Origin: Candidatus Bathyarchaeota archaeon
Lineage (GTDB): Archaea; Thermoproteota; Bathyarchaeia; Bathyarchaeales; Bathycorpusculaceae
Direction of reading: 5' to 3'
Length of the DNA: 64,000 bases
NCBI GenBank assembly: GCA_963827165.1
Contig: CAWGZR010000005.1
Location: 608,001-672,000, forward strand
Position 1 is the first letter of the stretch. Each line of letters starts with the position of its first letter. Under the pieces are notes generated by a model that did no database searches, had not been told where the DNA came from, and saw only the letters and a list, made by a program, of their open reading frames with translations. This document shows positions 32,863 to 64,000 of this stretch, in pieces. A program made the translations under genes and the position numbers.

Positions 32863-32902
32863 AAAAAAAAAGAAGGTGGGAAGTTGCATAACTCTTGGTA
32901 TC

Positions 32903-33511: not shown

Positions 33512-33520
33512 GCTCTGTAT

Positions 33521-33583
33521 TATATAACGCTAATCCATATAGAACATGTGAAGAACGTTAGCATTTAGTTCAGCTATTTAGAA
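33521..33583 (-). promoter_or_regulatory. bipartite palindromic element plus TATA (minus strand)
   Basis: Reverse complement reads ttCTAAATAGct (from 33583), GTTCTATATGGATT (from 33545), TTATATA (33527-33521). Confidence 0.7.
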
Positions 33584-33898
33584 ACAGCCTAAACTCTATG
33601 CCCTATGAGTTGACCAAAATTCGCAGGGTTATTAGTTAAATTTCGGGATATCCGGTTAGGGCGTTCTGGTTGGAAAACTTGGGTCTATTTCTGGCGAGGC
33701 ATACTTAGACAAATTTGACGGTGAGCTTTGCCTTGAATCTGTAAATTTTGTGCCCTGTCCGATGGTTATTTTTTTTATTTTCAATTGAATTCTACATATA
33801 TTTCCAAGTTAGCCTTAGGTAAGTATGGTGACTTTAGAGTCGTATATAGTATATGAAGAAATGAGTTTTATGCTAACTTTTATATCATACTAAGAACT

Positions 33899-35575
33899 AT
33901 GGCTAAATTGCTCTCCAAAGCGATCACAGCACTGATCATAATCCCACTCTTACTGTCCATATGCACGCTGGATACACAACAATTCCCAACCGCCCACGCA
34001 TCCACACCCACATTATACATCACTAACATCCGAACTGTCAATAGCGATAATCAAAACTGCTTCTATTTCTGCAGAGGGGCAAACATTGCTGTATTCGACG
34101 TCTCCGTCCAAAACAACATAACATCGGTCGCTTCCGGACAACTGATTATAACTATGACTGATGTGGGTCGTGTACCCGTAGAATCCTTTGAGTCCAACGT
34201 CTTTTCAGTAAATGCGGGACAAAACGAAACTATCCAGGTCGCTAGCAGTATTATCCCAACCTATGCTTTTGTGGGAATAGCGAGTGCCCAAGTGATACTT
34301 GAAAACCCATCAACAGGACCCATAGGTTTCGGAAACATAAATTACTATATTGGATACACAATTCCCCCCAGCTATGAGTTTTCCGGCATTACCCTTAGCC
34401 CTTCTTACGCCTCCGTTATAGCTGGAAACTCTGTAAACTTTACCGCAATTGCCCATGACAATCTTGGCAACTATTTAGACATCAGTCTTGGATCAAATTG
34501 GAATATTAACTCTCGAGCCGAGGGTTCCTGGTTAGAAAACACCTATTCCGCGGCAAGAGCCGGTATTTGGAACGTCACGGCTTCATTGGGAAGTTATTCT
34601 GCCGCCGCGATGATTAGCGTCGCCCATGGCGCAACCGCTGCAATAGTTTTGTCTCCGCAAAAAACATCAGTCACTGCTGGGCAGAGTCAAACTTTCAGTG
34701 CCACCGCAAACGACGCATACGGAAATAGTTGGGACGTCACGGCTTCAGCAGTTTTCAGCATCAATTCTTTAGCTTCCGGCTCATGGGCGGGCAATGTCTA
34801 CACATCTGCGAAAGCTGGAACTTGGACAGTAACGGGCGGGCTTGGGAGCTTGATTGGCCAAGCATCTTTCACAGTTGTGCACGGTCCTATCAATAGCTTG
34901 GCTATTTCCCCGCAATCAGCAAATTTAACAGCTGGGTCATCGTTAGTCTTCATCGGTACCGCCTTTGATTCCTACGAAAACAGCTGGGACGTTACCGCCT
35001 CCACAGTTTTTAGCACAAGCAGTGACGCCGGAGGTTCCTGGTCGGGCAACACTTATACGGCTGCAACAGCTGGAGTTTGGGTTGTTTCGGGTTCTTTTTC
35101 AGGTTTTACCAAGACTGCTTCTTTAACGGTTAGCCATGGTTCGCCAATAACGATCTCCGTAGCTATGCCATCTGATGTTAACAGTGGTTGTTCATTTACT
35201 TTTTCGTCAACCGCCTATGATGCTTACAATAACGGTTGGAACGTCACTTCTTTGACAAGTTGGAGCATAAGCAGCGGCGCTGGCGGTTCATGGTCAGGAA
35301 ATACTTACACTTCAGCTAACCTTGGAAACTGGGTGATCACAGCGAATTACCTGAACATAAAAGACAATGCTGACTTAGGGGTGTACTACCCCATCGACTT
35401 CTACTTCGCTGGCACCGTTAATTTTTTGGATATAATTTACTTTATTGGTGCGTACACTAATTTTTATGAAAACGGCATCTTTAACCCTGCATGCGATTTA
35501 AACCACGACGGCTCCCTAAACTACATGGATCTGAATTTGCTTGTAGCATATTACACCGCCTACTCCCAGGGATGA
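33899..35575 (+). CDS. secreted protein: IPxWA-type domain + 4 Ig-like repeats + dockerin-like
   Basis: IIPTYAFVGIA; four ~85-aa 'TATAxDxYGNxWDV..GGSWSGNxYT' repeats; DFYFAGTVNFLD...NPACDLNHDG. Confidence 0.88.
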   Translation: MAKLLSKAITALIIIPLLLSICTLDTQQFPTAHASTPTLYITNIRTVNSDNQNCFYFCRGANIAVFDVSVQNNITSVASGQLIITMTDVGRVPVESFESNVFSVNAGQNETIQVASSIIPTYAFVGIASAQVILENPSTGPIGFGNINYYIGYTIPPSYEFSGITLSPSYASVIAGNSVNFTAIAHDNLGNYLDISLGSNWNINSRAEGSWLENTYSAARAGIWNVTASLGSYSAAAMISVAHGATAAIVLSPQKTSVTAGQSQTFSATANDAYGNSWDVTASAVFSINSLASGSWAGNVYTSAKAGTWTVTGGLGSLIGQASFTVVHGPINSLAISPQSANLTAGSSLVFIGTAFDSYENSWDVTASTVFSTSSDAGGSWSGNTYTAATAGVWVVSGSFSGFTKTASLTVSHGSPITISVAMPSDVNSGCSFTFSSTAYDAYNNGWNVTSLTSWSISSGAGGSWSGNTYTSANLGNWVITANYLNIKDNADLGVYYPIDFYFAGTVNFLDIIYFIGAYTNFYENGIFNPACDLNHDGSLNYMDLNLLVAYYTAYSQG

Positions 35576-35698
35576 TGCCGGAATTCCACGAATAAATAGT
35601 TGAGTTAAAGAAGAAAGTGCAGGATCAATGGATTTCTTGCTATTTATGTAGCTTATCTGTCATCGACGGGAATTATCTGATGAAAGTGTCTTGTGACA

Positions 35699-35760
35699 TG
35701 CTAAATAGTTCTTGTGAAAACTATATTTCTCCCATGTTCTATGTTGAAAAACATCATATA
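35699..35760 (+). promoter_or_regulatory. bipartite palindromic element plus TATA
   Basis: tgCTAAATAGtt at 35699, GTTCTATGTTGAAA at 35736, TCATATA at 35754. Confidence 0.7.
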
Positions 35761-35781
35761 CCTCTTTTAGCATGATTTAAA

Positions 35782-36873
35782 TTGGGGAAAGGCTTGACCA
35801 GAAAAATAGTCGTTATTCTCCTTTCAATATTACTTTTAATAAGTATATTTTCTCTGATATTAATTGGGAATTTTAACGTGGCTAAAGCCGATAATCAAGG
35901 CACCCTTTCAACCGAGGGTACTGCTGCTGGATCTGTCCCTGGCGTAGCAATTGTTAACGTTGCGTCAGCGCAGACCTTCGTTGAAGAAGGATTTTCGGCT
36001 GACATAACTGCGACTGTCGACAACACGGGATCTTCAGCATCTATTTTTTATGTTACGTTTCTCGGCAACGGAGTTCCTCTTGATACTCAGCCTGTCGCAC
36101 TCGGTGGCGAAAGTTCAACTGCGCTTTCTTATGTGTGGAACACCACGGGTTTTGCCCTTGGGAACTTCACTTTAAGCGCTTACGCTTGGTCTAATCCAGC
36201 GGAAACCAGCTTAGTTAGCGCCAACAGTGTCAACGCCAACATTTTGGTGACTTGCCCTGATGATTTGACTGGTCAATCCACGGTGAATTTTTTGGACATA
36301 ACTGCCTTCGTCGCAGCTTATATTAACTATTATCAAACTGGGCAATGCAATCCCGCTACTGATTTTAATCATGATGGACGCGTAGATTTCAGCGACCTTG
36401 TCCTTTTCGTCGCCAATTACCAAGCCTACTTTGTGGGTCCAACTCCGTTTGTGACTAACGGTGGTTTGACGCTTACTTTGGCAATTAAGCAGACTACTTA
36501 CAGTTTGGGGGAGCCGGTTAATTTTACGCTCAGCATTAACAACGTGAGCAAAAGCACAATAACGTTTACGCGCACCGCATCCACCTTTGACTACATGGTA
36601 TACAACAGCACAGGCATCGTGTACCGATATTCGATCGGGATTGCATTTCCTATGTGGGCACAGATTTATACTCTGGCGCCTGGAGAAAGTTTAACGGAAA
36701 ATTTTAGTTGGGATCAAGTATGCAATCTATTTTTCAGTCCAGCCGCCGGCAGCCTAGGGCCTTCTAATCCAGTGGCCTTCCCTCCAGTTTTTCCAGCATC
36801 ACCCGGAACCTACTACATACTTGGGGAAGCACTTGGAATGCAAACGATTCCACAGCAAATAACCATAACTTGA
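35782..36873 (+). CDS. secreted CARDB-like + internal dockerin-like + BsuPI-like domain protein
   Basis: WNTTGFALGNFTL; DFNHDGRVDFSD; YSLGEPVNFTLSINN..FDYMV..TLAPGES..WDQ. Confidence 0.8.
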   Translation: MGKGLTRKIVVILLSILLLISIFSLILIGNFNVAKADNQGTLSTEGTAAGSVPGVAIVNVASAQTFVEEGFSADITATVDNTGSSASIFYVTFLGNGVPLDTQPVALGGESSTALSYVWNTTGFALGNFTLSAYAWSNPAETSLVSANSVNANILVTCPDDLTGQSTVNFLDITAFVAAYINYYQTGQCNPATDFNHDGRVDFSDLVLFVANYQAYFVGPTPFVTNGGLTLTLAIKQTTYSLGEPVNFTLSINNVSKSTITFTRTASTFDYMVYNSTGIVYRYSIGIAFPMWAQIYTLAPGESLTENFSWDQVCNLFFSPAAGSLGPSNPVAFPPVFPASPGTYYILGEALGMQTIPQQITIT

Positions 36874-37067
36874 AAGTTTTTTGCTGCCTTTTTTTATAAA
36901 GCTTAAAGTTTGCGAGTTAAGTTTTACCTGTTTCCGTTTCTTCGCGTTTTTTCCATCTTTCTACCTTAGCAGCCGATGCGTTGCGAGTTTGAGACCGAAG
37001 CGTTAAAAAAAGGGCGGATTTGCGTCGGGATTAACTAATGGTTAAAATTTTGAAAGAAAAATATGAT

Positions 37068-37655
37068 TTAACTTAATAGTTGGCTTACGAACTCCGAGGC
37101 TTGCGTCTTGATATTTTGGCTTGTGTTTATTTCGAGCGTTTCTTTGATTACTAAGCTGCTGCCGGTTGGCAGTGGCGCTATTTGATCGTTTGGCGTATTA
37201 GAGTTACCGACTCCGAAAACTCCTAGTTGTGTTAATGTTAAGTTATATTGGTTTAAGCTTACTAAGTATGATTGCACTGATTTTGAGGCTTGCCCGCTTT
37301 CTATGGGGCCTCCGACAACTACAACTTGATATTGAGCGGCGTTTCCCATTGCGGTTTTGCTATCGATGCCGGCTAAGAAAACAAAGTATCCTTTTGCTTG
37401 AAGGTCGCTGGCTATTTGTTTAGCGGCGTTCTCCACTGCTCCCGTTGAACCTGGGTCGAAAACTAATAGTGCGTTGCCCGGTGCTACACCAACAGGATAG
37501 CTGGTGGGAGTAAACGTTTTAGTGCTTGTAGCTGCGGAAGCTTTTGAATCGAGGAATAAAAAGCTCACAATTGCTATGGAAATAATAACTATTAATAGCG
37601 CAGCGATAATTATTTTGGATGACTTTTTCAGTTTCCTTTTTGCCTTCTGCACCAA
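37068..37655 (-). CDS. membrane-tethered flavodoxin-like protein
   Basis: N-terminal TM helix; LLVFDPGSTGAVENAAKQIASDL and VVVVGGPI. Confidence 0.7.
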   Translation of the reverse strand: MVQKAKRKLKKSSKIIIAALLIVIISIAIVSFLFLDSKASAATSTKTFTPTSYPVGVAPGNALLVFDPGSTGAVENAAKQIASDLQAKGYFVFLAGIDSKTAMGNAAQYQVVVVGGPIESGQASKSVQSYLVSLNQYNLTLTQLGVFGVGNSNTPNDQIAPLPTGSSLVIKETLEINTSQNIKTQASEFVSQLLS

Positions 37656-37698
37656 TGTAAAGCCTCGTATTTTTCCTTTCAGTTTTGCTTATTACTTT

Positions 37699-37730
37699 TT
37701 CCTGCATAGATGATTTGTTCTATATAGAAA
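37699..37730. promoter_or_regulatory. palindrome TTCTATATAGAA plus a degenerate neighbour
   Basis: GTTCTATATAGAAA at 37717-37730, upstream of the flavodoxin-like gene. Confidence 0.6.
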
Positions 37731-37775
37731 CTCTTCTTCCTCATTTTTGGGCATTATTTGTTGACTTATAATCCT

Positions 37776-39441
37776 TTAATCTTCTTTGGTGTGCTCAGCT
37801 ATTCTTATGTCTTCTTCCTGCGTGCGTTCTTGTGTTCGAATTTTGAATTGCTGTTCTTTGACACTTTTATCTCCTATGTTTTGTTGTTTTGATTGAATAT
37901 TTTGTGTGTCATTAGCGGGTAAGGGTTGGGTGCTTATTGTTGCGTTCAGTGTTGTGTTGCCGTTGTTTGCATCTATTGGTCGAGAGTCGCTTACTCCTTT
38001 AACCTCTGCAGTTTGGGTGTTCATCGCGGCTAAAGCTTGTCTTATTGAGTCAAAATAGTTTCTGACTGCTCGTTCTTGTTCCTCAAGTATTTGGTTAAGA
38101 CCCAATATCTGTTGGTTGAGTTGTTCCCTTTCAGCTTTAAGTGATGTTTCTAAAGCTTGGACTTTCTTTCCAGTCTCAGAGATTCTGCTAAGGTAAGTAG
38201 GTATATCCTGACTTGATTCGGGAAGCATGGAAGGTTTTGAGACCTGTTTGTTTTGTGTGTCTGTGTCGGAAGGGTCTTGGCTTGACCAAGTTTCGAATAT
38301 GGCTGGCATTTGCGTTGTCGTAGTTGCTTGAACCATATTCGGGGCTCCGCCGATTTTTGCCGCTATTTGTTGTGGCTCTTGAGTTGTGGGTTTTGGCTGT
38401 ATTGGATCAGACGGTGGCGTTGCGGTGGGATAAGGGTTTATTGTTGGCATGTTTGGCATTTGAGGTCCGAGAGGTCCCATTTGTGTTGGTTTTCTTCTTA
38501 GGAACATGTAAAGCATTGTGAAGGTGAAAAGGCCTGTCGCGACCAGGAGCCATGAGAAGAGGCTGACACTATTTTGAAGGACTGTAGGCGGCGGGGTTGG
38601 TGTAGGTGATGTTGGTGCAGGTGTAGGCGTTGTCGTGCCGTTGTTGATTACGGTAAAGTAGGCTGTTTGGTTTTCGCCAGCTGGTATGTCTGTTCCGTTG
38701 TAGGCTCCATTGTATAGCGCTAAGTTGATTGCTGCTTGGCCTGCAGGTGCGTTTTCAGGTATTTGAAGGGTGGCTTGTATCTGAGTTTGATTTAGGCTTG
38801 GGATTTGGCTGTTTAGAATCTCTGTTTGATTAATAATTTGGTCTGAATCCTGAATGTTGAGCGTGACGTTTGCCATTTGGGATTGCCCAAGATTATTGAT
38901 TGTTGCATCAACCGCCACATTGTCGCCCGGAGAAAAGATGGTTTGGTTTTGGCCTTGGGAATTCAACAAGTTTATGGATGTTGCTTTCTAGACCCCATTG
39001 TGTTATGAAGCTTGAGGTTTGTGTTTTTGCCCCGTTTACGGTTGCGGTCACGTTCCACGTTCCGATTAATGAATCTTCGTTGTTGGCCTGGATTGGCAGG
39101 CGGAAGGAAAATGTAGCTTCGCCGTTTGCTTTTGTCGTTTCTGTTCTTGCAATGTTTATTGGGTTACTTGATGGACCAACTATTTCAAAAGAAACCAGTA
39201 CGTCGGGTTGTGACGCGTTATTATAAGTGACTTTTGCGAGGAGTTGTACTTGGTCAAAAGGCTGAAAAACACCGGCTGTTGTGTTTTGATCGTTTAGTAC
39301 TTGTAACTTTAGTGCCCATGGAGTACTAGTCGTTTGAGCCTTTATCATTTGGGCTGTTAGTGGGAAGGATAGGGCTAAAAGTAAAATAGGCATTACGTAA
39401 ATCAGCAATTTTAACGTTTTTTTGGTTTTTTGATGTGCCAT
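37776..39441 (-). CDS. single-pass membrane protein: extracellular di-domain, TM helix, Pro/Gln-rich linker and cytoplasmic coiled coil (one frameshift near 38970)
   Basis: ORFs 38908..39441 and 37776..38969 join; SFRLP..GTWNV, LQIPENAPAGQA, TM LFSWLLVATGLFTF, heptad-like segment. Confidence 0.75.
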
Positions 39442-39460
39442 TTGTTTTCCCCTCTTGGTT

Positions 39461-40837
39461 TTAGCTTCCTTTCATTCTCTTATTAAGGTAGTTTCTTAGC
39501 AGCAGCGCTCCGATACATAACACAAGGTACATTGTAATGAGAACTAATGCCACTGCAAAAGCAAAACACCATGAATAGAAATTGGCGTCTGTGAGGTTGC
39601 CCTTGCCAAGGTTGCCTATTATGGTTAAAGCTCCCGGTGATTCGTCAATTAAAACGGTTAACGACGGAAGTGGCTGATGGAGACTAAATATGTGCCACCA
39701 TGGGGTGGGAAAACCGAAAACGCCTGAACCTGTGTAGGTCCACAGCAAAATTAAAGTTTCTCCAAGCGCAACTCCGATTCCGAGCAAGATTCCGGTTATA
39801 ATGCCGGGCATTGCAGCGTAGAGTGTCACTAGTCGAGCCGTCTGCCACTGTGAAGCGCCAAGGGCAAATGATGCTTCTCTGTAAGATCTAGGCACAGACT
39901 TCATCGCTTCTTCTGCTACTCGAATGTTCCATGGGAGAGCCATAAAGGACAACGAGATTGCCGCACCCCATAGGCTGTAACCCCATTTTAACGTTACCGT
40001 GAAAATCGTAAATCCGATAATTGCAACGACCACGGAGGGTGACCCTGCCAGGGTTTCTATGAAGAAGCGAATAGTGCTTACAATTCTATTTTGAGTTGAG
40101 TATTCTGCAAGATAAATCGCTGCTCCAATGCCGATTGGCACAGCCACGAATTCACAGAAAGTCACAAGCAATAACGACCCGAGAGCGTAACCTAGCACTC
40201 CTCCAGTCGAACCGATCGGCGGATGTAGCCCCCCGGTTATTTCGTTGATCCCGTGATAATTAAGATTCATCGAAGTGAAAAGTTGCACTGATAAGAAAGG
40301 CGAAGCCATCAATATCACGAAAATTACCATAGCTATGACGACCCCTATGCTAAAAATTACTGAAAGTCTCAAACCCAGTTTCACCGCGTTTTCCATCACT
40401 ACCGGTGAATCTTTAGTCTGATGCTCCATTCTTCGTCTTTTTAAAATTTCCAGTGTTGCAGCTACGCCGCTTAAAAATGCGATTGAAAGCGCGATGTACA
40501 TAGTCGCTGAATCTGCAAAGGCTATCAATAATGCAATGCCACAAGTTGAAATCGATAATTTCCAGCCTAATGAATGTCCTTCCCAAAGTAGATATGCTGC
40601 GGAAAACAGAATAAGGGATGGGAGTATAATGAGCAGTGACATCAAGCCAAAAGACCAGTACTCATTGATCGTGAGTATGGAAAAGGCTAAACTATCCATG
40701 CCATCCACAAAATTGTTAACGCCCAAAATCAGAATAATAACTCCAGAAAATAGAAGAAGGCTTCCTGTTAACAGGTTTTCTTTTTTCTTTTTCTTGAAAA
40801 AGTTGAACGTTTTCGTTAACACCAGGCTGAAATTCAT
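39461..40837 (-). CDS. pstA: phosphate ABC transporter permease PstA with an extra N-terminal TM region
   Basis: GIGAAIYLAEY, IETLAGSPSVV, EEAMKSVP..REASFALGA, ALGET. Confidence 0.9.
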   Translation of the reverse strand: MNFSLVLTKTFNFFKKKKKENLLTGSLLLFSGVIILILGVNNFVDGMDSLAFSILTINEYWSFGLMSLLIILPSLILFSAAYLLWEGHSLGWKLSISTCGIALLIAFADSATMYIALSIAFLSGVAATLEILKRRRMEHQTKDSPVVMENAVKLGLRLSVIFSIGVVIAMVIFVILMASPFLSVQLFTSMNLNYHGINEITGGLHPPIGSTGGVLGYALGSLLLVTFCEFVAVPIGIGAAIYLAEYSTQNRIVSTIRFFIETLAGSPSVVVAIIGFTIFTVTLKWGYSLWGAAISLSFMALPWNIRVAEEAMKSVPRSYREASFALGASQWQTARLVTLYAAMPGIITGILLGIGVALGETLILLWTYTGSGVFGFPTPWWHIFSLHQPLPSLTVLIDESPGALTIIGNLGKGNLTDANFYSWCFAFAVALVLITMYLVLCIGALLLRNYLNKRMKGS

Positions 40838-40844
40838 TCCCTTT

Positions 40845-41775
40845 TTACGCCCCCAGTGTTTTACTCCGCCTAGCTAAGACTGTTCTTGCCGCAATGTTAA
40901 CTAAGCCTATAAGCACAAATAAGAAAAAGCCAACGGCATAAACCCCAGCTCCAGGACTGCTGGTAGAATCTTGCGCGCCGACGTAAACATTTTGCATGAG
41001 GATAGACAAAGTTTGACTTTGAATAAACGGGTTGAAAATCGTTAAGGGGCTGTTAAACAATGCGGAAGAAACTGTTCCTCCAAGTACCCACTGGATGGCT
41101 ACCATTTCGCCCATGGCTGCGGCAAGAGCCAATAAAAACGATGTCAGAATCCTCGGCATGGCACTTGGAACCAAAACTTCCTTAACAGTTTGCCATTTGG
41201 TTGCGCCAATTCCAAGTGATGCTTCTCTTAAATCGTTGGGAACTGCTCTTAAGGCATCTTCTGAAATCGTGGCTATTACAGGAAAGGACATTATGAGAAG
41301 AATTAACCAGGCATAAAAATCACAGCCAAGTCCTTGCAATTTTAGTTGAGTGTGCAAGAAACTGCTGAATGAGTATCTGGCATCGGGCGTGGCCAGAAGT
41401 TGCCAACCTATTAGCCCGATAACTATTGAAGGAAATCCATCTAAGACTTCGAGGGAGGTTTTTGTAAAGTTTCTTAGTCTCATATCCGCAAATTCCGCCA
41501 TGTAAATTGCGCATGGAAAGCCCACAAGAACCGCCAATGCTGCAGCACTGCCAGCGATATACAATGTTCCTTCTGCGGCACCAGAAAGTACAGCTGCCCG
41601 CTACCAACAAAGGGGTCATAAAAGCGTAAACACCATGTAATAATAAGTTGATTATCTCAGGGTATCCCATAAATAGCAAGTAGCCGATGATGGACAAAAC
41701 TACAATTATTGAAAAAGCCGCGCAAAGGAACAGGATTGTCTTGATTAGCCCTTCCTTAAACGATTTATTGGCCAT
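40845..41775 (-). CDS. pstC: phosphate ABC transporter permease PstC (frameshift near 41570-41610)
   Basis: MANKSF at 41775; AIYMAEF, LEVLDGFPSIV, SEDALRAVP..LREASLGIGATKWQ, AMGE. Confidence 0.88.
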
Positions 41776-41838
41776 CTGTTCCCCCCTTTTGCTTCTATGA
41801 ATTATGTGGAAAAGGCTGGAAGCAGGCAAGATAACGCT

Positions 41839-41950
41839 TTTCTATTTATAATGTATAGTCTAATTAGAAATCGCGTGTAACAAGTAATCGCTTCGTTCTT
41901 CACTATAGCCTAAATTGTCTCCCATAAACTACGTCGGTAAGCTAGATATC
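41839..41950. promoter_or_regulatory. divergent pstC/pstS promoter with TCTA-N2-TAGA-like sites
   Basis: Perfect TCTAATTAGA at 41859-41868; degenerate copies at 41839, 41907 and 41926. Confidence 0.55.
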
Positions 41951-42012
41951 TGCTAGCCCCGAACTTATGCTCAGAACGAGAAATCGTTCATTAGAGAAAG
42001 GAGAAATATAAA

Positions 42013-43737
42013 TTGAATAAAATACAAAAAATAATAGTATCTATGTTAGTTATAGCAATGAATGACTTTTTCAGCAGGCGCAGCACTACGTACATGACAT
42101 CTTACGGTCGCTTCCCTGGAGCTACCAACACGTTGGTAACCCCAGGCCAATTGACAGTCGCAGGCTCAAGCACAGTCGGTCCAATCGCTACCGAAGAGAT
42201 TAACCAGCGACTGCAGGGGGCAATTTCGTCAGCATACTGGAACAACTTAGTTAGCACTGGCGTCAGTTACTTCATCAGACATCAGTCAAGTTAACTTGGC
42301 AACCTTAGGCAGCGGAACTGCAGTTCCAGCATTAGCGACAACAACCGGCAACTGCTGACATCGGAGAAATGTCAAGACCACCAAGACGGCCGAATTTTCA
42401 ACCACAGGCATAGTAGACATGCAGCAATATGCAGTCGGCGTTGACAGTGTCGCAATCGTTGTAAGCCCTGACATGACATGGCTCCCAACAAGCCTCAACC
42501 ACAAGGTCAGAAGATTGCAGGTTGCACTATTCGCAGACACCACTCCAACAAACGACGGCAACCAAGGCCTCACAGGCGTTACAGGCTCCACAGCATTGTG
42601 CAAAACTTGGGATGACTTCTTCATAGCTCACATTCGGCATTTCAACCACAGGCGTTCCATCCGCAGCCTTATCTGCAGAACATTCTTCGCGCAGTCAGAG
42701 ATCCAACATCAGGAACATTCGACTGCTTCGACAACTATTTCATAGCTCCAAACGGCTACCAATTTGAAAACAAAGCAACTACATCGACAAGCCCCGGCCA
42801 GAACCACCGTTGACGGCTCACAACGCAAATGGCGCCATTCACATACTGCCAAGAAAACATAACATTTACAACACCGTAAGTGCAGGCAAACTAACCTCAT
42901 CCAGCGATTACATTGGCTTCATCTCACTAGGATACTTAAACAGCTACGGCGGACCACAGAATTGGGTAACAGGAACAGTAGCTAACCCAATCCCAGCCGG
43001 AATCACTTCAGCCACAACTATGATCGGCATCCCCATCTCATACAACCTGGCAGCAACACCATCAAGCGCCCCAGCAGGTTCTCCAACACCAATCCTCAAA
43101 TATTATGGCAGCTCAGGCACATACTCCTTCATAGGAAGCACCGTAAACGCACCAACTTGGGGAACAGCAGTCGCACCAACAGACGCTAACGTCATCTACT
43201 CTTACTCCGGAATCGCAGGCGCACAAGCAACAGGCATGTACAATGCATGGAGATGGCTATGGGAAGTTACCAGGTACAAACCATCTTCAGGCCCAACCTT
43301 AGTAGCAGGTGTTTGGATTGCTTACATGATGGCAGACGGCACAACTAACGCAGGCGAGACTCCAGTATCGAACTCCACGGCATCGGCTCAGGAACCAGCG
43401 ACTTTGTCGCAAGACCAAAACTACATTCTCACTCGAACGCGACGACATGGCAGGCGGACCAGTACTCGACTCTAACCTTGACAGCATACACCACACTGAA
43501 GCCTACGGCAACTCAGACTCAACATTCCCAACAGGTGTAGTCAACTTCAACGACATCACATACTTTGTTGCTGCATACATCGACTACAACGTAAACCACG
43601 TCTACAACCCATACGCAGACCAAAACGCAGACGGCGCCATCAACTTCAACGACATCAGCCTCTTCGTCGGAAACTACATAGCATACTACACAACTACGAA
43701 ACCCAACCATAAATCTCCCCCATCCTTTTTTATTTAA
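42013..43737 (+). CDS. pstS: phosphate-binding protein PstS fused to a C-terminal dockerin-like module (multiple frameshifts)
   Basis: Across frames: LTVAGSSTVGPI, GSGTAV, DIGEMSR, VGVDSVAIVV, RDPTSGT, IGFISLGY; then GVVNFNDITYF..YADQNADGAINFND. Confidence 0.85.
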
Positions 43738-43764
43738 ACAGATAATTGAAAGGAGAAACAAAAC

Positions 43765-46182
43765 ATGAACATTAAAACCTAAAACAAAACACATAGTAGC
43801 CTTGGCATTGACCCTTTTTATGGTCATGCTCGATGCTATTCGCGTGCGCGCATGCGGCGTATACCAGCGACCGGAACACCACCCTATCTTGATATTGTGC
43901 GCAACCGGCGGCGCTGCATCAACAAGCACCACCAATATTCCACTGAGCAGTTGGCACTCAATTCTCAGTAGATGTCCGAGTTGACAACTATGCAGACGTA
44001 AACCTTGGCCAGGCGCAAAAAACGGTATCAGCGGAGTCAGTTATGAGTCACATTGGAACCCAGCAGTGCTTACATACGTATCCATACTCAGAAGTCAATT
44101 GGCTACCATCACAATCAAACGCAGGTGACCTACAAAACCAGGTTGCATCAGGAAAAATAACCTTCGGACAGATTGCATTCTCAACGAGTAACCCATTCGC
44201 AGTAGCCTCAAGCGCAACTGGATCGGTATCCGCAACTATCACATTCCAAGTGGTCAGCCGCAGGCACAAGCGCTCTTACTCTTACACCTCAAGGCGCAGG
44301 CGTTCCATACATCGTCGCTCCACAAACAGTCGGAACACTCACATCAGGCCACGCAGTTACAGGATCACTCACATACAATGCACTATACAACCCACAAACA
44401 ACAGTCAGCCTATACGCAAATCCAGCAGACAGCGCAAACACCTTCCAGTTCGCAGCAGGCACAGACCCAATCGGCCAAACATTCCAAGTTGACATGTACA
44501 TCAACAACCCCAATGCAGTTCAAGTTTGGGGATGGAACTTAGGCGTAACATGGAATGCAGCAGCAATCCAACTGACAGGCATCACTGAAGGAACATACCT
44601 ATCAACAAGTAACCTAAACAATGCAAACGGCGCATCAACAATCTTCGTCCCAGGCTACGTAGACAACAACGCAGGAAACATCCCACAAGGAATCAGCGAC
44701 GTATACCTATCAGACTCCACAACAACCAACCCACAAGGTGTCCTTTGCACATTAACCTTCACCGTCATAAGCTTCACCAGCAGCAACATCAACCTAGTCC
44801 AAGGTATCCCATCACTTGAAACACTCGTAGGAACAACCCCCACGGCAGTTACACCAGCACCAGTGCTCCAAAACTTCCAATACATAACAAACTCCCCAGC
44901 AGCACCAACAAGCCCAGTTGCAAAAATCACCAACGGCGCCACAACCTACACCAACGGACAAGCCCTCTCACCAGCATTCAATTCAGGTGCATCATTCGGC
45001 TTGACCGCAGCGAACTCAGTTCCAGGAATGGACGTTATCCCGAACTCTGCAGATCTATCTTACCCGAGTTATCCAGTTACAGGATACTCATGGTCTTTCA
45101 CAGCAACTGCAGGCGCACCAACATTGTTCACAAGCCCAACGACAACTGAGACACTAAGCTTCCTCACACCAACAGTTAACTCACTTACCACATACACCGT
45201 ATCGCTAACAGTGACAACAGCATCAAATCCAAATGATGCGAGCTACATCCCAACAAGCATCGCAACAACATTCTCATTCCAAGTCCAGCCAGCATCAACC
45301 GCACCAACAACCGCAGGCGCACTATTAGACATCTACGTTACAAACCCGGGAACTCCAGTCTACAACCCATCAGTAGCCTCAACGACCAATCCAATGTACG
45401 TCCCTGACGGAAACAACGGCAACCCACTCGCAGCAGGAACAAGCGCATATACACCAAACTCCTACAGCGACGCATTCGGCCCACAAGCAGCCATGATCTT
45501 AACCGGCGTCGTAACATTCAACGGCGCACCAGTCGCAAACAAAGAAGTAACCTTCAATGTCGTAAACAATCAAGGCGTAGTAATTGGAACATACACCGCA
45601 ATGACCGACGAGAACGGAATCGCAACAGTTAGCTACAGACTTCCATGGTTTGACGGCACTTATGCAACTGGCCCAGCAAGCGAATTCGGTATCTGGAGCG
45701 TAAAGGGAGCAGTTGAAGTTCAACAAACAATCGTAACTGACAACATGCCATTCGACTTCGGAGACATAATAAGCATAGTCAGCGGCAGCGTAACACCAGC
45801 CTCATCCTCAGTGCCAAGAAGCACACTAACGATATCTACAAGCCAATCATTCACAGTCGGCCTCTCAGGCATCTCCGACCAGTCGCAAGCCTACTGGATG
45901 TCCTACACCGTGATTGATGCAGGAAACGTACCAGTCGCAACCGGCGTAGTATCATCATCAATGCCAGCAGCAGCGTACTCATCAACAGGCGGATTGACTG
46001 TAACTCCAAGCACAAGCAGCACAGGCGCATCATTCGTAATCCCGTCATATGCATTCGTCGGAACCGCAACAATCGTCGTTAACCTCTACAATGCAAACCC
46101 AGTCACTTCACTAAACACGGCCGTAACCTACTGCCCACAAGCATCAGCAACCTTCACAATAGCTATACCCTTCGGCGAATAA
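43765..46182 (+). CDS. major scaffoldin-like protein: 2 cohesin-like + PKD-like + C-terminal di-domain (5' part frameshifted)
   Basis: ATG 43765 with GGAG RBS; first cohesin WLPSQSNAGDL..ITFGQIAF..SATITFQV; second cohesin VWGWNLGVTWN..ITEGTYL; FVIPSYAFVGTA. Confidence 0.8.
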
Positions 46183-46216
46183 GTTAAAGATGGTAAATAA
46201 TCAAAAACCATCCCTA

Positions 46217-46234
46217 TCTTTTCTTTTTTCTTTT
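46217..46234 (+). terminator. oligo-T terminator
   Basis: T tracts after 46182. Confidence 0.5.
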
Positions 46235-46315
46235 CAAACTAAAATTTTAATATAGCTTGTTCGGAATTTGATTTGCTTTCTGTTAGTCTAATTAAGAATT
46301 AATATTCCAACCGCT

Positions 46316-46386
46316 TTTCTACGTTGATTTTTTCTATATAGAAACTGCTATTCTCAATATTATATTTTGGATAGACTAAATACTTT
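46316..46386 (+). promoter_or_regulatory. perfect 14-bp palindrome TTTCTATATAGAAA and promoter shared with 48896-48960
   Basis: Palindrome at 46331-46344; 24-bp identity between 46351-46374 and 48916-48939. Confidence 0.7.
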
Positions 46387-46424
46387 CAGTCAAGAATTAA
46401 TTCGTAAGAAAGGGAGAGAATTAT

Positions 46425-47480
46425 ATGAATAAGAAATTCCTATTAGCAGTTTTTCTCATTGGGATCGTCTTGGCAACCGTAGTTGTGGAAGTCAGAGCCA
46501 TCAACGCTTCAACGGTGACTTTAACACTTGGCAATAACGCGAACAATCCCTCTACACAATACCCAGCCGACGCGTACTCGCTATTCACGTTAAATCAAAC
46601 CATGATATACAACGACATCGTACAAACACAGTACCCGACCGATGGGCTCGTAGGAGTACAAATCCAGGATCCAAACGGCGCCACAATGGTAATCAGGACG
46701 CTGCAAACAGGCACCACAATTCCAGACTCAATACCCATCACCATAAGCGAAGCATTCCTGTGCAACAGTGGCGAACAGAATATTACCAGCATAACGATCC
46801 CATCCGGCACCAACTTGTTTGTTCCGCAGATTTATTTCACTGTCTACAACAATCAGGCTACAGCGCAATCACTAATAGTTACCCTCAACGTATATGACAG
46901 CAACGGCATACCGTTCCCTGCAGTATCCCAAGTTATGCCTAATGTTCCGGCTTACACCTCAAAAGAATCCACTCTAAATTTCTATATCCCGTCGTGGGCT
47001 CACTACGGCACAGCTACAGCGTATGTCGACGTTTACACCGCCATGCCCAATAATAACGGCTATCCACTGGGAAAAGAATACAACTTCCCATTCACAATAA
47101 CAGGCGGGACAGCATACCAAGGTCTCCAGCCAATGACACAGAGTAAAAATGGTTCCCCAACTAACTTCTTCAGCATGTCTTTTAGACTGCCGCAGTACTC
47201 TGACGTCACACTTGGCGCCTTCACGGTCACATCCACAGCAAACTACCTGGGCGTCATGGGTTCAGAAACAACACCTTTCAGCGTCCAAGAGTTTGCAGAC
47301 GTTAATGGAGATAGCGCCGTAAACTTCAATGACATAACAAACTTTGTTGCGCTATACATAAACTACTTCGCGAACCATGTATACAGCCCACAAATAGACT
47401 TCATACATGACGGAAGTGTAATTAACTTCAATGATGTAGCTCTCTTCGTAGCGTACTACATTCAGGCTTGGAGCTCATAA
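46425..47480 (+). CDS. secreted di-domain + dockerin-like protein
   Basis: FYIPSWAHYGTA, SFRLP; FADVNGDSAVNFND..IDFIHDGSVINFND. Confidence 0.85.
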   Translation: MNKKFLLAVFLIGIVLATVVVEVRAINASTVTLTLGNNANNPSTQYPADAYSLFTLNQTMIYNDIVQTQYPTDGLVGVQIQDPNGATMVIRTLQTGTTIPDSIPITISEAFLCNSGEQNITSITIPSGTNLFVPQIYFTVYNNQATAQSLIVTLNVYDSNGIPFPAVSQVMPNVPAYTSKESTLNFYIPSWAHYGTATAYVDVYTAMPNNNGYPLGKEYNFPFTITGGTAYQGLQPMTQSKNGSPTNFFSMSFRLPQYSDVTLGAFTVTSTANYLGVMGSETTPFSVQEFADVNGDSAVNFNDITNFVALYINYFANHVYSPQIDFIHDGSVINFNDVALFVAYYIQAWSS

Positions 47481-47485
47481 GAAGC

Positions 47486-48835
47486 ATGAGAAAAAAAACA
47501 ATCGCTCTGCTGATCCTCACTATCTTAGCTTTCTCTATTTTTCCTTTTGTTCCAAATACGAAGGCTCAAGGTACATCGCCAACCGTTTCACTTACGCCTT
47601 CAACAACTCAAGTGACACAGGTCAATCAATACATCTTCCTAAACGTTACAATAACTGATGTTCAAAACCTCTGGGCATGGACCGCTACTGTCACTTGGGA
47701 TCCAACAGCACTAACCCTGATTGGTTCTCCAACAGAAGGAAGCTTCCTTCAACAAGCGGGCACCACAGAATTTATCCCCACTCCTGCGAAAAACCAACCG
47801 GGCGCAGAGGTCATTAATGACGCAGTTCTGGGCTATGCCGGAGCAAGCGGAAACGGAGACTTAGCGACGATCGAGTTCCAAGTAATAGGACAAACTTCAA
47901 CAACCGTTCAGCTGGGCAATATAACTATAGAAGGTCCACCTCCAAGCGGATCGTTGTACGGCACCTCAATAACACTTGCAGCGACTTCTTCATCAGCAAC
48001 AATCACCTTTGTTTCAGGCGGAGTCCCAGCAGCCGACGCTGGACCGGACCAAACGGTTACGCAGGGCACAACAGTAACCTTCGACGGCTCAAAATCTCTA
48101 CCATCATCCATCACATCATACTCATGGAACTTTGTGTATAATGGCGCTAACGAATCGCTTACCGGCGTAAATCCCACTTTCGCATTTAACCTCCCGGGTA
48201 TATACGTTGTTACACTAATAGCTACAGACGCAAACGGCCCCAGTACACCGACAACAGTAACAATAACAGTCAATAGCAGCAGCAAACCAATCGCCGTAAT
48301 CGCGGGCGTCAGCCAAGGGCAATCAGTCCCGACAGGACAACCTATAACCCTTAGCGGCACAGGAAGTTCCGAGCCTAACAACGGAACTATAGCCAAATAC
48401 CTGTGGGGCGTTAACCTTATCTCACAAACAAGCACTGCCGGCAAAACCAGCCAAGAGACAGGAGGCGCTTTAGCGATAGGATCAAACGCCACCGTAACAT
48501 ACACTTTTTCGTCCTTTGCGTCAGATCTGAAATCAGAAACCTACAACATTACGCTAACAGTTTTCGACGCAACCAACCAAAACAACACCGCCACCACACA
48601 AATTACTGTTGTCCGCGGCACAGGCGCAACCTCAACCCCTACAGCAACCAGCTCAACTACGACATCAACCCCTGGATCCACTTCCACTTCGGGTGCAACT
48701 TCAAGCCCAACTCCCGCCTCCACATCGGACGACGGGCCACAGGCAGGTCTGCCACCCGAGGTAATAGCAATCACAGTAATCATCACTATACTGGCACTCT
48801 GCGGATCAACCATCTGGCTAAGAAAAAGAACCTAA
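47486..48835 (+). CDS. anchoring scaffoldin-like protein: cohesin + 2 PKD + S/T linker + C-terminal TM
   Basis: VQNLWAWTATVTWDP..EGSFL; ADAGPDQTV..FDGSKS; LPPE-TM-RKRT. Confidence 0.85.
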   Translation: MRKKTIALLILTILAFSIFPFVPNTKAQGTSPTVSLTPSTTQVTQVNQYIFLNVTITDVQNLWAWTATVTWDPTALTLIGSPTEGSFLQQAGTTEFIPTPAKNQPGAEVINDAVLGYAGASGNGDLATIEFQVIGQTSTTVQLGNITIEGPPPSGSLYGTSITLAATSSSATITFVSGGVPAADAGPDQTVTQGTTVTFDGSKSLPSSITSYSWNFVYNGANESLTGVNPTFAFNLPGIYVVTLIATDANGPSTPTTVTITVNSSSKPIAVIAGVSQGQSVPTGQPITLSGTGSSEPNNGTIAKYLWGVNLISQTSTAGKTSQETGGALAIGSNATVTYTFSSFASDLKSETYNITLTVFDATNQNNTATTQITVVRGTGATSTPTATSSTTTSTPGSTSTSGATSSPTPASTSDDGPQAGLPPEVIAITVIITILALCGSTIWLRKRT

Positions 48836-48895
48836 TGAAAACGTCAAAAAGCAATTTATCTCCTCTTCCTTACGAAATTGTGCCTGTTTGAGTTT

Positions 48896-48960
48896 TATCT
48901 ATATAGATAATACAGTTCTCAATATTATATTTTGGATAGGGCTAAATAATTTAGTCTAAA
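48896..48960 (+). promoter_or_regulatory. palindrome TATCTATATAGATA and duplicated promoter
   Basis: Palindrome at 48896-48909; homologous to 46331 onward. Confidence 0.7.
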
Positions 48961-48990
48961 GATATCGCTGTAAAGGGAGAGATATATTAT

Positions 48991-49788
48991 ATGAAGAAAT
49001 TCGTGTTAGCAGTTTTTCTCGCAGTCCTCGCTTTGGTAAGCGTCATAGCAATTTACCCTTCACACGCAAGCACGGCAACAACGATGAGTATCGACTCATC
49101 TACCCAACAATTTCCCTCAGCCACGGTTGGATCCACCATACAAATAAACATTGAAGTAAGCAATGTGCAGGGTCTTTGGGCATGGGACGTAGCTGGGTTG
49201 ACGTTTAATCCTGCATACTTGAATTTAACAGGTGCTAGCGAAGGTCCGTTCCTTCAAAAAGCTGGACAGACTCTATTCATCTGGACTTCAACTTCCCAAG
49301 TTTCCTTCGCCAAAGGCGTCATTCCAGACATATCTGACGCGCTGCTTTCCTATTCCACTGAAAGCGGAAGCGGCGTCCTTGTTACCTTAACGTTCCAAGT
49401 TCTTTCCTTGGGTACTTCACAAGTAGCTTTTAACCAAACGACCCTCGATACCCCAATAAACGAAGCGACAGGAGGACACACGGACTTTGAGCAAATCCCC
49501 TGCACGAACATTAACGCAAACATAGTTTTAGGGCCAAATACAGCTACGCCTTCACCAACATTTACATCGAATCCTTCCTCAACCCCCGTCAGTTCGACCT
49601 CTCCAAAATCATCAACCACACCCACAGCATCTTCAACCGCCAAAGCATCCTCATCTCCTAACTTGACATCCACCCCGACACAAAACGCCCCGGAATATCC
49701 AATCGTCTCAATCTTAATAGTGCTTTTCGCTGTCATCACACTCTCAACTTTAGTGCTCGCCACGAAGGCTAAAGTCAACAAAAAATAG
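48991..49788 (+). CDS. anchoring scaffoldin-like protein: cohesin + S/T/P linker + PEF-CTERM-like anchor
   Basis: VQGLWAW..FNP..EGPFL..SGSGVLVTLTFQV; APEYP-TM-basic tail. Confidence 0.85.
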   Translation: MKKFVLAVFLAVLALVSVIAIYPSHASTATTMSIDSSTQQFPSATVGSTIQINIEVSNVQGLWAWDVAGLTFNPAYLNLTGASEGPFLQKAGQTLFIWTSTSQVSFAKGVIPDISDALLSYSTESGSGVLVTLTFQVLSLGTSQVAFNQTTLDTPINEATGGHTDFEQIPCTNINANIVLGPNTATPSPTFTSNPSSTPVSSTSPKSSTTPTASSTAKASSSPNLTSTPTQNAPEYPIVSILIVLFAVITLSTLVLATKAKVNKK

Positions 49789-50158
49789 CCTTTCCTCCAT
49801 TTTTCAAAAAAAAAGTAGATATTCGCAAAAACGAAACAATTCTTTTTGATTCCAATAAACTCACTCAATTTTTGCTGTTCTTGATCTACATCGGTCACAA
49901 AATTTGCAAAATTGACCGAAATAACCAATAAAGATTGAATGCACGTGGCAGTTTTCGATAGAAAACTGAACAAATTTCGTTTTCTATATTTTGAAAATTA
50001 TCTATATTGACTATATGATCTATTTGGCTAAGGTAAAATAGTTAACGTCACAATAGTTCTTTTCAGAGGGAGCGCTTCGATGTTTCATAAAAAAGGAGTT
50101 ATGACTATCTTACAGCGGCTTACGGACGATAGCGCTCACGCTTTTGGAGGCCAGCTGA

Positions 50159-50316
50159 ACGAAACATAAGAAAATTATTTGTTTGGTCCTGGTCTGTATC
50201 TTTGCAATTTCTGTTTTTTCAGTAATGACGCACTTTATCAATGCTCAAACTGGTCCAATTTTAAGTATCGTTCCAACAGGCGATCCGGGGGCTACCAGCA
50301 TCACTATGCTTTCAAC
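50159..50316 (+). repeat. 158-bp near-identical inverted repeat, copy 2
   Basis: Partner of 21578-21735. Confidence 0.9.
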
Positions 50317-51871
50317 CCAAACCGTCGGCACAACCTTTTCCGTCGATGTCCGGATTGACGACTACTCAACCGTAAATATTGGCGGAACTAACAATGGTAT
50401 TAACGGAGCCAGTTATGTGGTGACCTGGGATCCAACAGTTCTGGCGTATCAATCTTATACTGATGGAGCTTGGCTTCCATCCCAATCAAACACTGGCGAT
50501 TTGTCAAACAAGGTCGCGAACGGACAATTAACCATAGGTCAAATCGCTTTCGGAAGCAGCAGTTTTATAACCGCTGATAGCGCTTCTGGGTCAGTTTCAG
50601 CAACCATTATATTCCAAGTTCTCAGTAACAGTGTCGGTACCACCATTGGACTTGAGCAGCAAGGAGCAAACGTTCCTTACCTTATTGCGCCGGAAACCGT
50701 AGGCGGACTCACCTCAGGCCATGCGGTTTCTGATGTTACCGCTGTGAATGCGCAATACGGAACAGTGGCTTCACCTACTCCCTCGCCCACTGGGACACCT
50801 ATACCTACTTCTTCCCCAACTCCGACACCTACCCCCACACCAACATCTTCCCCTACCCCAACGCCGACTTCTTCTCCTACACCCTCAGGACAAACCCAGG
50901 GACCAATAGCCATTATCACTAATCAAAATGGAACAACATACCAAACTGGTGAACCAATACTTCTTGATGGCGGTACCTCAACTGCAGGATACGATGCAAA
51001 TAGTGCAGAAACGTGCCCAATAACAAATTACGCTTGGCTAGTTCAGTACGAGAACGACTCTGTATTCGGTGTCTATAGCGGTGGGGGCGTAACAATTAAC
51101 GTAAACAGTGCAACGTCGCTTCATGTCACTTTGATAGTAACTGCCCCAGACGTTGATACTTCACCAAATTCTCAATACACAAACACTTCGACGACAAGCG
51201 TTTGGATTAATGTCCAAACAGCTCAGTCACTAACAAAAATGGATTTCTTCTCCAGCCAAAGCGTCTATGGACCGCAACAACTGGTGCAACTATATGTATA
51301 CGTCACGTATAATGGGGCGCCTGAACCCAATGAAAACGTGGCATTTACTGTAATAAATCCGAGTGGCACAATTGTCTCTGTGCGTACGGCCTTCACTAAT
51401 GAAACAGGCTACGCCTACACGGATTATATAACACCCAACATTGCATCGTCGATTGGGACATGGACTGCCATATCATCGGTAGAGGTCAACCAAGTAATAA
51501 TCACTAACAAGATTACCTATGAATATAACTACCTGGTCACCGTCACAACCAACGGCATTACAGTCCCCTCAACTGTTGCAAGAGGCGGCACAATAACCGT
51601 CACAGTGGCCATCCAAAACACCGGTGACATAACACTCAGCTCAGTTGTAACCATCACGATTTACGACCAGGACAACGTACCCATAGCCACCGACCTGCTT
51701 CCTGTAACCAACGCTGCTAGCGGGGCAACGGTTTCAGGAACATTTACTATTCCAACCTGGGCTGCCGTTGGAGAAGCAACGGTTTACGTTAACATCTTAT
51801 CGGCTGACCCTACAGCAGGTGGAGTCCCGTTGTGCCCTGAACAGACAGCAAATTTCCAAATAACCGCATGA
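50159..51871 (+). CDS. cohesin + PT linker + PKD-like + di-domain protein; start position reads ACG
   Basis: ACG-AAA-CAT-AAG matches ATG-AAA-CAT-AAG of the 21735 paralog; GGAGG at 50146-50150; FTIPTWAAVGEA. Confidence 0.85.
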   Translation, partial: TKHKKIICLVLVCIFAISVFSVMTHFINAQTGPILSIVPTGDPGATSITMLSTQTVGTTFSVDVRIDDYSTVNIGGTNNGINGASYVVTWDPTVLAYQSYTDGAWLPSQSNTGDLSNKVANGQLTIGQIAFGSSSFITADSASGSVSATIIFQVLSNSVGTTIGLEQQGANVPYLIAPETVGGLTSGHAVSDVTAVNAQYGTVASPTPSPTGTPIPTSSPTPTPTPTPTSSPTPTPTSSPTPSGQTQGPIAIITNQNGTTYQTGEPILLDGGTSTAGYDANSAETCPITNYAWLVQYENDSVFGVYSGGGVTINVNSATSLHVTLIVTAPDVDTSPNSQYTNTSTTSVWINVQTAQSLTKMDFFSSQSVYGPQQLVQLYVYVTYNGAPEPNENVAFTVINPSGTIVSVRTAFTNETGYAYTDYITPNIASSIGTWTAISSVEVNQVIITNKITYEYNYLVTVTTNGITVPSTVARGGTITVTVAIQNTGDITLSSVVTITIYDQDNVPIATDLLPVTNAASGATVSGTFTIPTWAAVGEATVYVNILSADPTAGGVPLCPEQTANFQITA

Positions 51872-51881
51872 GTAGAGAAAA

Positions 51882-53537: not shown

Positions 53538-53584
53538 CCTACAAGAAAACAATCACGCGATTTCATTGGCATGTTCTCTTAATT

Positions 53585-63999: not shown

Positions 64000-64000
64000 T

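Follow-up and report, generated by a model that had tools for sequence, protein, structure and literature searches.

A PstS-type phosphate-binding protein with a C-terminal dockerin, probably tethered to cohesin proteins, in a phosphate locus of Bathyarchaeia

We analysed a stretch of 64,000 nucleotides (nt) from a Candidatus Bathyarchaeota archaeon (hereafter the window, which corresponds to C5:608001-672000 in a genome of 3.13 Mb) and found that positions 42013-43737 are one gene, which codes for a phosphate-binding protein of the PstS type that ends in a dockerin; this fusion is genuine and is conserved. From comparison of sequences and domain architectures, we put at about 70% the probability that this protein is tethered non-covalently to cohesin proteins near the permease PstCA, a reading in which the binding and its partner, the ligand and the delivery to PstCA are predictions.

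One gene across several frames

No single open reading frame (ORF) spans positions 42013-43737 on the forward strand. The ORF listing holds four main pieces in different frames, at 42013-42294 (93 amino acids, aa), 42419-42745 (108 aa), 42810-43475 (221 aa) and 43447-43737 (96 aa), and the public gene call (P0150) corresponds to the 221-aa piece (99.5% identical to 42810-43475). Scanned separately, none of the four pieces matched a Pfam family at E<=0.01, as the frame changes divide the domain among them, and a six-frame search of the genome with PF12849 matched four other loci and missed 42013-43737. Searching the largest piece against 60 related genomes recovered full-length homologs in the same genus, among them single-ORF proteins of 466, 455 and 463 aa (L007, L009 and L011, respectively) and a longer form of 837 aa (L010).

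When the intact congeneric homologs and an intact 552-aa ortholog (P0049) were compared with the window by tblastn, we found one continuous homology across all three frames, running from a PstS-like part into a dockerin-like end; the same comparison with the two canonical PstS paralogs of the genome returned only noise. A frameshift-aware protein-to-DNA alignment with P0049 as query aligned residues 1-552 to the window over 547 matched codons, 483 of them identical (88%), with 24 frame changes between 42061 and 43523. The ORF pieces, tblastn and this read-through bear out what a sequence-only reading of the window had described, namely PstS motifs passing through several frames into a dockerin-like C-terminus. 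A stop with a separate start between the two halves, which that reading had named as the finding that would speak against it, was looked for, and the P0049 read-through contains no in-frame stop. The start at 42013 is a TTG codon and agrees with the N-termini of the orthologs, while at the 3' end (about 43695-43744) the window differs from a short-read contig by indels and the true stop may lie slightly upstream of 43737.

Distribution of the fusion and synteny

An intact ortholog (P0002) retrieved 105 proteins at E<=0.001 from a collection clustered at 90%, most of them covering 98-100% of the query. Where names were given, they read 'ABC-type phosphate transport system substrate-binding protein' (ABC, ATP-binding cassette) or 'hypothetical protein', and one protein was labelled Candidatus Bathyarchaeia. 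The sequence-only reading had proposed to look for the fusion in homologs, and it was found there: an inter-repeat dockerin motif was present in the last 90 residues of 90 out of the 105 relatives, and both halves lay in one open frame in 16 of the 21 matching genomes of the genus. Those 21 came from 119 other species of the genus, at E<=1e-10; in the other families of the order, none of 24 genomes was matched with a 235-aa fragment as query. Intact single-ORF PstS-dockerin fusions are thus a family in Bathyarchaeia.

We also examined the surroundings of 21 loci in species-representative genomes. In 17 of them, pstA-pstC lay divergently upstream and a cohesin gene directly downstream, and the remaining four were second copies on contigs that also held the full cluster. 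One locus (L029) is the same DNA as L007 of G020, a genome that belongs to the genus of the window. Nineteen of the 21 loci were labelled Candidatus Bathyarchaeota or Bathyarchaeia and two were labelled bacteria. These two (L033 and L042) carry an archaeal-type cluster under the labels Limnocylindrales and Acidoferrum; nine genes of the L033 cluster are syntenic with the window at 43-73% protein identity, so that mis-binning of archaeal contigs seems likelier than gene transfer. Separately, the two clusters nearest to P0049 in the ESM Atlas consist of hypothetical proteins from Planctomycetota (762 and 876 aa; scores 0.95 and 0.94), with Dockerin_1 on 50% and 44% of their members, respectively. 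The best fold match of the PstS domain (4jwo) is also from a Planctomycete, and a bacterial counterpart of the fusion may exist.

The phosphate-binding domain

The intact ortholog of G020 (P0002, the L007 protein) scored 39.6 bits and another relative (P0100) 54.1 bits with PBP_like_2 (PF12849), whose gathering score is 27 bits. A profile of 93 family members matched nine sequences of the PDB at E<=0.01, of which eight bear the name of a phosphate-binding protein and one (1twy) is the Vibrio cholerae phosphate receptor. The fold was examined with an ortholog, not with the window's own sequence: an AlphaFold (AF2) model with a predicted local distance difference test score (pLDDT) of 92.5 and a predicted template modelling score (pTM) of 0.90 was searched with Foldseek, and ranks 1-49 as listed were all phosphate-binding proteins, the best being 4jwo (E 4e-15).

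Motifs of the anion-binding site (GSST, GSGT, SR and R-x3-SGT) were invariant or nearly so in the 93 sequences and are present in the window read-through; all four were found by regular expression in 74 of the 105 relatives. In particular, G48, S49, D106, S206 and G207 were invariant, and S50, T51, G92-S93-G94, R112, R202, D203 and T208 were conserved in at least 90% of the 93 sequences. We take these positions to be the equivalents of the phosphate ligands of E. coli PstS, Thr10, Ser38, Asp56, Arg135 and Ser139-Thr141. The binding protein is assigned to the PstS family, with orthophosphate as its predicted ligand.

The dockerin module

An alignment of 36 modules (A3) shows two loop-helix repeats. 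In the window, the second loop carries the full Ca-loop pattern (D-x-N-x-D-G-x-I-N-x-x-D), and the window dockerin probably has a single Ca site. The corresponding part of P0002 (residues ~405-462) retrieves many unrelated proteins that share the module; in 33 such proteins, Dockerin_1 (PF00404, gathering score 22.9 bits) was matched 18 times at E<=0.001 and 14 times above the cut-off. The Dockerin_1 score was 27.4 bits for P0100, which passes both PBP_like_2 and Dockerin_1, and 19.9 bits for the L007 ortholog. Against the PDB, the module profile matched best 2y3n_B (E 3.2e-5, both repeats aligned), and also CelD, 4fl4, 1ohz_B and other solved dockerins. Finally, the complex of the G020 pair was predicted (scaffoldin residues 34-355 with both cohesins, dockerin residues 375-466); it scored 0.02 (mark 0.32), and we used it neither for nor against binding.

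Export and proposed tethering

By inspection, the N-terminus resembles a Sec signal peptide with an Ala-x-Ala-like site. None of the 105 relatives had a C-terminal hydrophobic run of at least 17 residues and only one had a cysteine within the first 40 residues; the family is without a lipobox and without a C-terminal membrane helix, in agreement with what the sequence-only reading had noted for the window gene. The two canonical PstS paralogs of the genome start with a membrane helix, which in one of them is followed by a long Pro/Thr-rich linker.

In the mechanism that we propose, PstS-dockerin would be exported via a signal peptide that is presumably cleaved; having no lipid or membrane-helix anchor of its own, it would be retained at the surface through its dockerin, which would bind, in a Ca-dependent way, a cohesin encoded by this conserved cluster. 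Its partner could be the two-cohesin scaffoldin of the next gene downstream, or either of the two single-cohesin proteins that have a membrane helix and a long flexible linker (47468-48835 and 48991-49788; Table 1). The latter would reproduce the geometry of the canonical paralog with its helix-plus-linker anchor, and they appear at least as plausible as the adjacent scaffoldin, which has no membrane anchor. The scaffoldin could instead, or additionally, hold two copies of PstS-dockerin. Captured phosphate would then be passed to the divergently encoded PstC/PstA, energised by PstB, which is encoded ~29 kb downstream. Two forms in which PstS, dockerin and cohesin are fused (L010, 837 aa; P0108, 1121 aa with two Cohesin stretches) tie the PstS-dockerin and cohesin genes together.

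Longer variants of another kind were seen in L032 and P0009, where PstS-dockerin carries N-terminal extensions of ~110-380 residues (569 and 844 aa). The genome from which L010 comes (G004) also has a broken copy, and some of the longer variants may be assembly artefacts.

Weighing the proposed tethering

Several results count against this reading, some at the level of the locus and others at the level of the ligand and of the C-terminal module. The adjacent scaffoldin has no recognisable anchor, pstB is not adjacent to pstCA, and the same fused forms suggest that the dockerin may not bind the scaffoldin's own cohesins.

As regards the ligand, P0049 and P0002 reached 37.2 and 60.8 bits with TIGR02136 (NCBIfam), far below the cut-off of 206.6, so the protein represents a divergent branch of the PstS superfamily outside that curated subfamily, for which another oxyanion is possible. 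If the domain were specific for phosphite, phosphonate, arsenate or another oxyanion, the scaffold would not serve phosphate scavenging as such. This would fit with the large insertions relative to solved PstS (466-552 aa vs ~250-320 aa), with the query-normalised TM-scores of 0.36-0.47, and with the presence in the genome of two canonical PstS, which fall in a different PstS branch and passed TIGR00975 (356 and 247 bits). Yet all the significant matches, by sequence and by fold, were phosphate-binding proteins, the anion-binding motifs show conservation, the best-scoring families for the partner permeases are PstA and PstC, and the locus also encodes PstB, PhoU, PPK1, PPK2 and Ppx. A different ligand is, in our view, improbable.

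It is similarly doubtful that the C-terminal module is a generic EF-hand-like tail that binds Ca and stabilises the protein, or a binder of S-layer or glycan, which would make the cohesin neighbourhood circumstantial. What gives this alternative some ground is that the first window repeat is degenerate and lacks the usual leading acidic residues of the loop, that the window's own dockerin piece had no Pfam match at E<=1 and Dockerin_1 stays below its cut-off in the window and most family members, and that EF-hand proteins are interspersed among the PDB matches of the module profile. The AF2 model of the isolated window module was only moderate (pLDDT 68; helices 39-55 and 72-89) and yielded no Foldseek match at E<=0.001 (best E 5). 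When the module was compared with 48161 chains (all representatives) by VIA-align, ranks 1-9 were all dockerins and none was an EF-hand protein (Z 6.5-4.3, within the range that VIA-align calls common), with a root-mean-square deviation of 2.2 over 56/56 residues for 2vn5_B. This result, together with the solved dockerin to which both repeats align, argues for a dockerin, as do two features of its surroundings: the same module ends 13 proteins of an island that holds six of the eight cohesins of the genome, and a cohesin gene lies 3' of pstS-dockerin in 17 of the 21 loci.

Origin of the frame changes

We conclude that the frame changes are very probably assembly indel errors and that the gene is intact in the real organism; the indels of this gene would belong to one badly polished patch in an assembly of the long-read type. 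The several frames that the sequence-only reading had described are on this account no biological feature, as indicated by the indel patch, the read-through and the short-read contigs. The alternative is a true pseudogene in this strain, with the frame changes in the DNA itself and the Pst system of the locus decaying, which we regard as very unlikely.

As method controls, three intact orthologous genes were put through the frameshift-aware alignment, which called 0, 1 and 1 frame changes, respectively; it called none in three intact flanking genes of the window (pstA, the gene of the 351-aa dockerin protein and that of the cohesin-PKD protein). It called 24 in pstS-dockerin, 2 in pstC (~41578 and 41619) and 7 in the scaffoldin (43774-44259), which could be read as decay of a copy made dispensable by a second, canonical pst operon on contig C12; broken copies were also found in two other genomes of the genus (G028 and G108). 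These 33 inferred changes, however, form a sharp patch of 2.7 kb (~41578-44259) over three genes and the intergenic region, with clean flanking genes, and a decaying gene with 24 indels would be expected to hold many substitutions and stops, whereas the read-through is free of in-frame stops and 88% identical to the ortholog of another species. Elsewhere in the genome, stops within ABC ATPase matches were isolated (2 out of 43), which is typical of residual long-read errors. No long homopolymers were found at the frame changes.

Short-read contigs from four soil-metagenome runs of two studies were compared with the window over 41300-44600, a check that the sequence-only reading had proposed; near-identical contigs lacked the extra bases. 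The runs may share a sample with the assembly, which makes this a technical check and no biological replicate, and is a further reservation about our reading. Several short-read pieces with 0-3 substitutions differed from the window by gaps alone, and one base was absent at 44053, 44084 and 44254 in all four runs. In X3, records 20-22 had 0 other letters and 3, 1 and 0 gaps, respectively. In X2, two 2-nt skips had been predicted within record 11 (42569-42660), which showed 4 gaps and 1 other letter; for record 12 (42631-42749), the prediction was one 1-nt skip and 1 gap was seen. Record 4 of X1 (42434-43596) had 44 other letters and 42 gaps.

We also rejected programmed frameshifting and an alternative genetic code as explanations, as the 24 changes run in both directions with no common motif and no stop-codon pattern. 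Because of the error patch, the public calls of the three genes are fragments. Isolated indel errors were also seen elsewhere in the window (~38985, 27475-28864 and 61807-62798).

Comparison with known systems

Known PstS proteins are periplasmic, or anchored by a lipid or a helix. The window protein resembles those of canonical PstSCAB systems (E. coli PstS and the Mycobacterium lipoprotein PstS-1; 1a54, 1pc3, 1twy, 4omb) in its type II fold, its anion-binding motifs and its association with PstC, PstA, PstB and PhoU. It differs from them in having a dockerin and neither a lipobox nor a membrane helix, and in scoring below the curated equivalog and subfamily cut-offs; the pst genes differ as well, with surface-protein genes in the ~29 kb between pstCA and pstB.

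With the clostridial cellulosome, the locus shares a two-repeat dockerin, a two-cohesin scaffoldin, single-cohesin anchoring proteins, and proteins with both cohesin and dockerin. Here, in contrast, a transport binding protein, PQQ-like propellers and Ig-like proteins are among the cargo, and anchoring is by C-terminal membrane helices and not by SLH (S-layer homology) domains or by sortase. No glycoside hydrolase (GH) or carbohydrate-binding module, by which a cellulosome would be recognised, was found among the window ORFs scanned with Pfam, the dockerin proteins included. Among distant carriers of the module, P0142 and P0222 have GH or lyase domains.

Archaeal cohesin and dockerin modules outside cellulosomes were reportedly treated by Bayer in 1999, Haimovitz in 2008 and Peer in 2009. 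Such modules, as in Archaeoglobus fulgidus, have no link to cellulose, and binding of archaeal pairs was verified, as cited in the accessible text of PMC9012536. According to the same text, such archaea are without multi-cohesin scaffoldins, whereas the genus of the window has two-cohesin scaffoldins.

The closest precedent comes from anaerobic methanotrophic (ANME) archaea, for which the accessible parts of Chadwick et al. 2022 (PMC9012536) report dockerin-bearing ABC binding proteins of the NikA/OppA and TroA types. Supplement S4 of that paper also lists one ANME-2a protein that combines PF12849 and a TIGR02136 PstS match (252.9 bits) with a type I dockerin repeat (residues 284-339), a table row that goes undiscussed in the accessible text. 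In both cases, an archaeal ABC substrate-binding protein ends in a dockerin (type I in ANME) and cohesin proteins occur in the same genomes. The two differ in phylum (Bathyarchaeia vs Halobacteriota) and in the PstS domain, which is larger and much more divergent in the window. They also differ in gene context: the window cluster comprises pstAC, divergent pstS-dockerin, the scaffoldin, a dockerin protein and two membrane-anchored cohesins, and the accessible parts of PMC9012536 report no such cluster for ANME. Given these ANME proteins, the novelty is lower than the sequence-only reading had assumed. In the accessible text of the literature searched, neither a PstS-dockerin nor a cohesin-dockerin system of Bathyarchaeia was found described. 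Three things are new: the lineage, a conserved gene cluster in which the fusion is joined with pstCA and defined cohesin proteins, and the location of nearly the whole cohesin-dockerin complement in a phosphate locus.

The role of cohesin-dockerin pairs outside cellulose degradation, especially in archaea, is a long-standing question. Here the dockerin is carried by a protein of well-understood function, accompanied by a small set of candidate cohesins and the cognate permease, so that a clean test is possible. This raises the questions of which cohesin is bound and whether non-covalent tethering takes the place of the lipid or helix anchor of archaeal binding proteins; if it does, some of the nutrient uptake of uncultured soil Bathyarchaeia would be arranged on a modular scaffold at the surface.

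The phosphate locus and neighbouring genes

The fusion lies in a locus of phosphate genes (Table 1), as the sequence-only reading had recognised. That reading had placed polyphosphate genes on the left and phoU on the right, where both were found, and had put the two-cohesin scaffoldin directly downstream and pstCA in divergent orientation, which also proved correct. The PstC, PstA and PstB genes are all present. PstB is encoded at C5:673087-673827 (395.1 bits, cut-off 343.2), ~1.1 kb past the end of the window and ~29 kb from pstCA, so that the phosphate setting comprises polyphosphate genes, PhoU and PstB in addition to the cluster with pstCA and cohesin genes that is conserved in 17 of 21 loci. 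The best NCBIfam matches of pstC and pstA are TIGR02138 and TIGR00974, both slightly under the cut-off.

Table 1. Features of the window in and around the phosphate locus, given in window positions.
Feature	Positions	Strand	Description
Polyphosphate block	877..12165		Pfam: two CHAD-metallophosphoesterase-Ppx domain III proteins, PPK2, Ppx/GppA, PPK1, CYTH
Cohesin-dockerin island	14872..62792		48 kb; 13 of the 15 dockerin-like matches and 6 of the 8 Cohesin matches of the genome
Conserved membrane protein 3' of pstA	37776..39441	-	Ig-like ectodomain, membrane helix, cytoplasmic tail; split at ~38985
pstA permease	39461..40837	-	Intact, 458 aa; TIGR00974 174.4 bits (cut-off 193.45); 0 frame changes
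pstC permease	40845..41829	-	Pfam BPD_transp_1; TIGR02138 157.2 bits on C-terminal piece (cut-off 196.45); 2 frame changes
Divergent intergenic region pstC/pstS-dockerin	41842..42012		From the ORF map
pstS-dockerin	42013..43737	+	~552-575 codons, ~24 indels; signal-peptide-like N-terminus, type II phosphate-binding domain, C-terminal dockerin
Dockerin module	43417..43710	+	Matched by profile A3 in the own-genome search at C5:651417-651710, E 6.7e-37; two loop-helix repeats
Scaffoldin	43766..46182	+	Signal peptide, two cohesins, Ig-like domains, no membrane helix; 7 frame changes; aligned to the 780-aa L037 ortholog
Secreted Ig-like protein with C-terminal dockerin	46425..47480	+	351 aa; CARDB-like as a lead only
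Cohesin and PKD protein	47468..48835	+	Pfam PKD; Cohesin at C5:655597-655914, 32.4 bits; Ser/Thr/Pro-rich linker, C-terminal membrane helix, basic tail
Single-cohesin protein	48991..49788	+	Pfam Cohesin 21.2 bits, C5:657117-657449; Ser/Thr/Pro-rich linker, C-terminal membrane helix
PhoU-domain gene, 3' end	63790..64000	-	Start lies beyond the window

The polyphosphate block includes two paralogous multidomain proteins (861 and 805 aa) that combine CHAD, a calcineurin-like metallophosphoesterase and a Ppx-GppA domain III/HD.

Beyond PstS, the dockerin carriers of the island include a PQQ-like beta-propeller protein (22352-24541), a BsuPI/CARDB protein (35776-36870) and proteins of 751, 572, 522 and 1406 aa with no Pfam domains or Ig-like domains only. 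Its seven cohesin modules are the two of the scaffoldin and those of 47468-48835, 48991-49788, 50159-51868, 51876-53534 and 20338-21747. The whole 48-kb island, which lies between the polyphosphate genes and phoU/pstB with pstCA and pstS-dockerin in the middle, might be a dedicated phosphate-acquisition surface machine, although we think this rather unlikely. In such a machine, scaffoldins and membrane-anchored cohesins would assemble PstS with the other twelve dockerin proteins (PQQ-like propellers, Ig-like proteins), which would bind phosphate or release it from soil organic matter or minerals, and the freed phosphate would be captured at once; if true, a cellulosome-like logic would apply to a mineral nutrient. 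A transposase-like ORF with weak matches to Mutator/ISL3 families lies inside the island (31214-32785, reverse strand).

In the scaffoldin, the Cohesin match of the own-genome search lies at C5:652464-652805. Pfam Cohesin was found in 9 of its 13 orthologs, with two stretches in L029. A conserved short end motif (46100-46182, 51780-51868 and 53450-53534; alignment A2) is shared by the scaffoldin and two further cohesin proteins that lack a membrane helix. The motif consists of a Pro-Glu pair, usually preceded by Cys, with Phe-x-Ile ~5 residues further on. Across the 13 scaffoldin orthologs the motif is nearly invariant, and it could be a sorting or attachment signal.

The membrane protein 3' of pstA, whose ortholog in L037 is a single 488-aa ORF, always adjoins pstA in the syntenic loci. 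Its Ig-like ectodomain is similar to a portion of the scaffoldin's C-terminal region, with tblastn matches of the 177-aa piece inside scaffoldin ORFs at six loci, and the protein might belong to the anchoring. Finally, the cluster nearest to the 351-aa neighbour in the ESM Atlas was a Bathyarchaeota CARDB/dockerin cluster (score 0.88), which we treat as a lead only.

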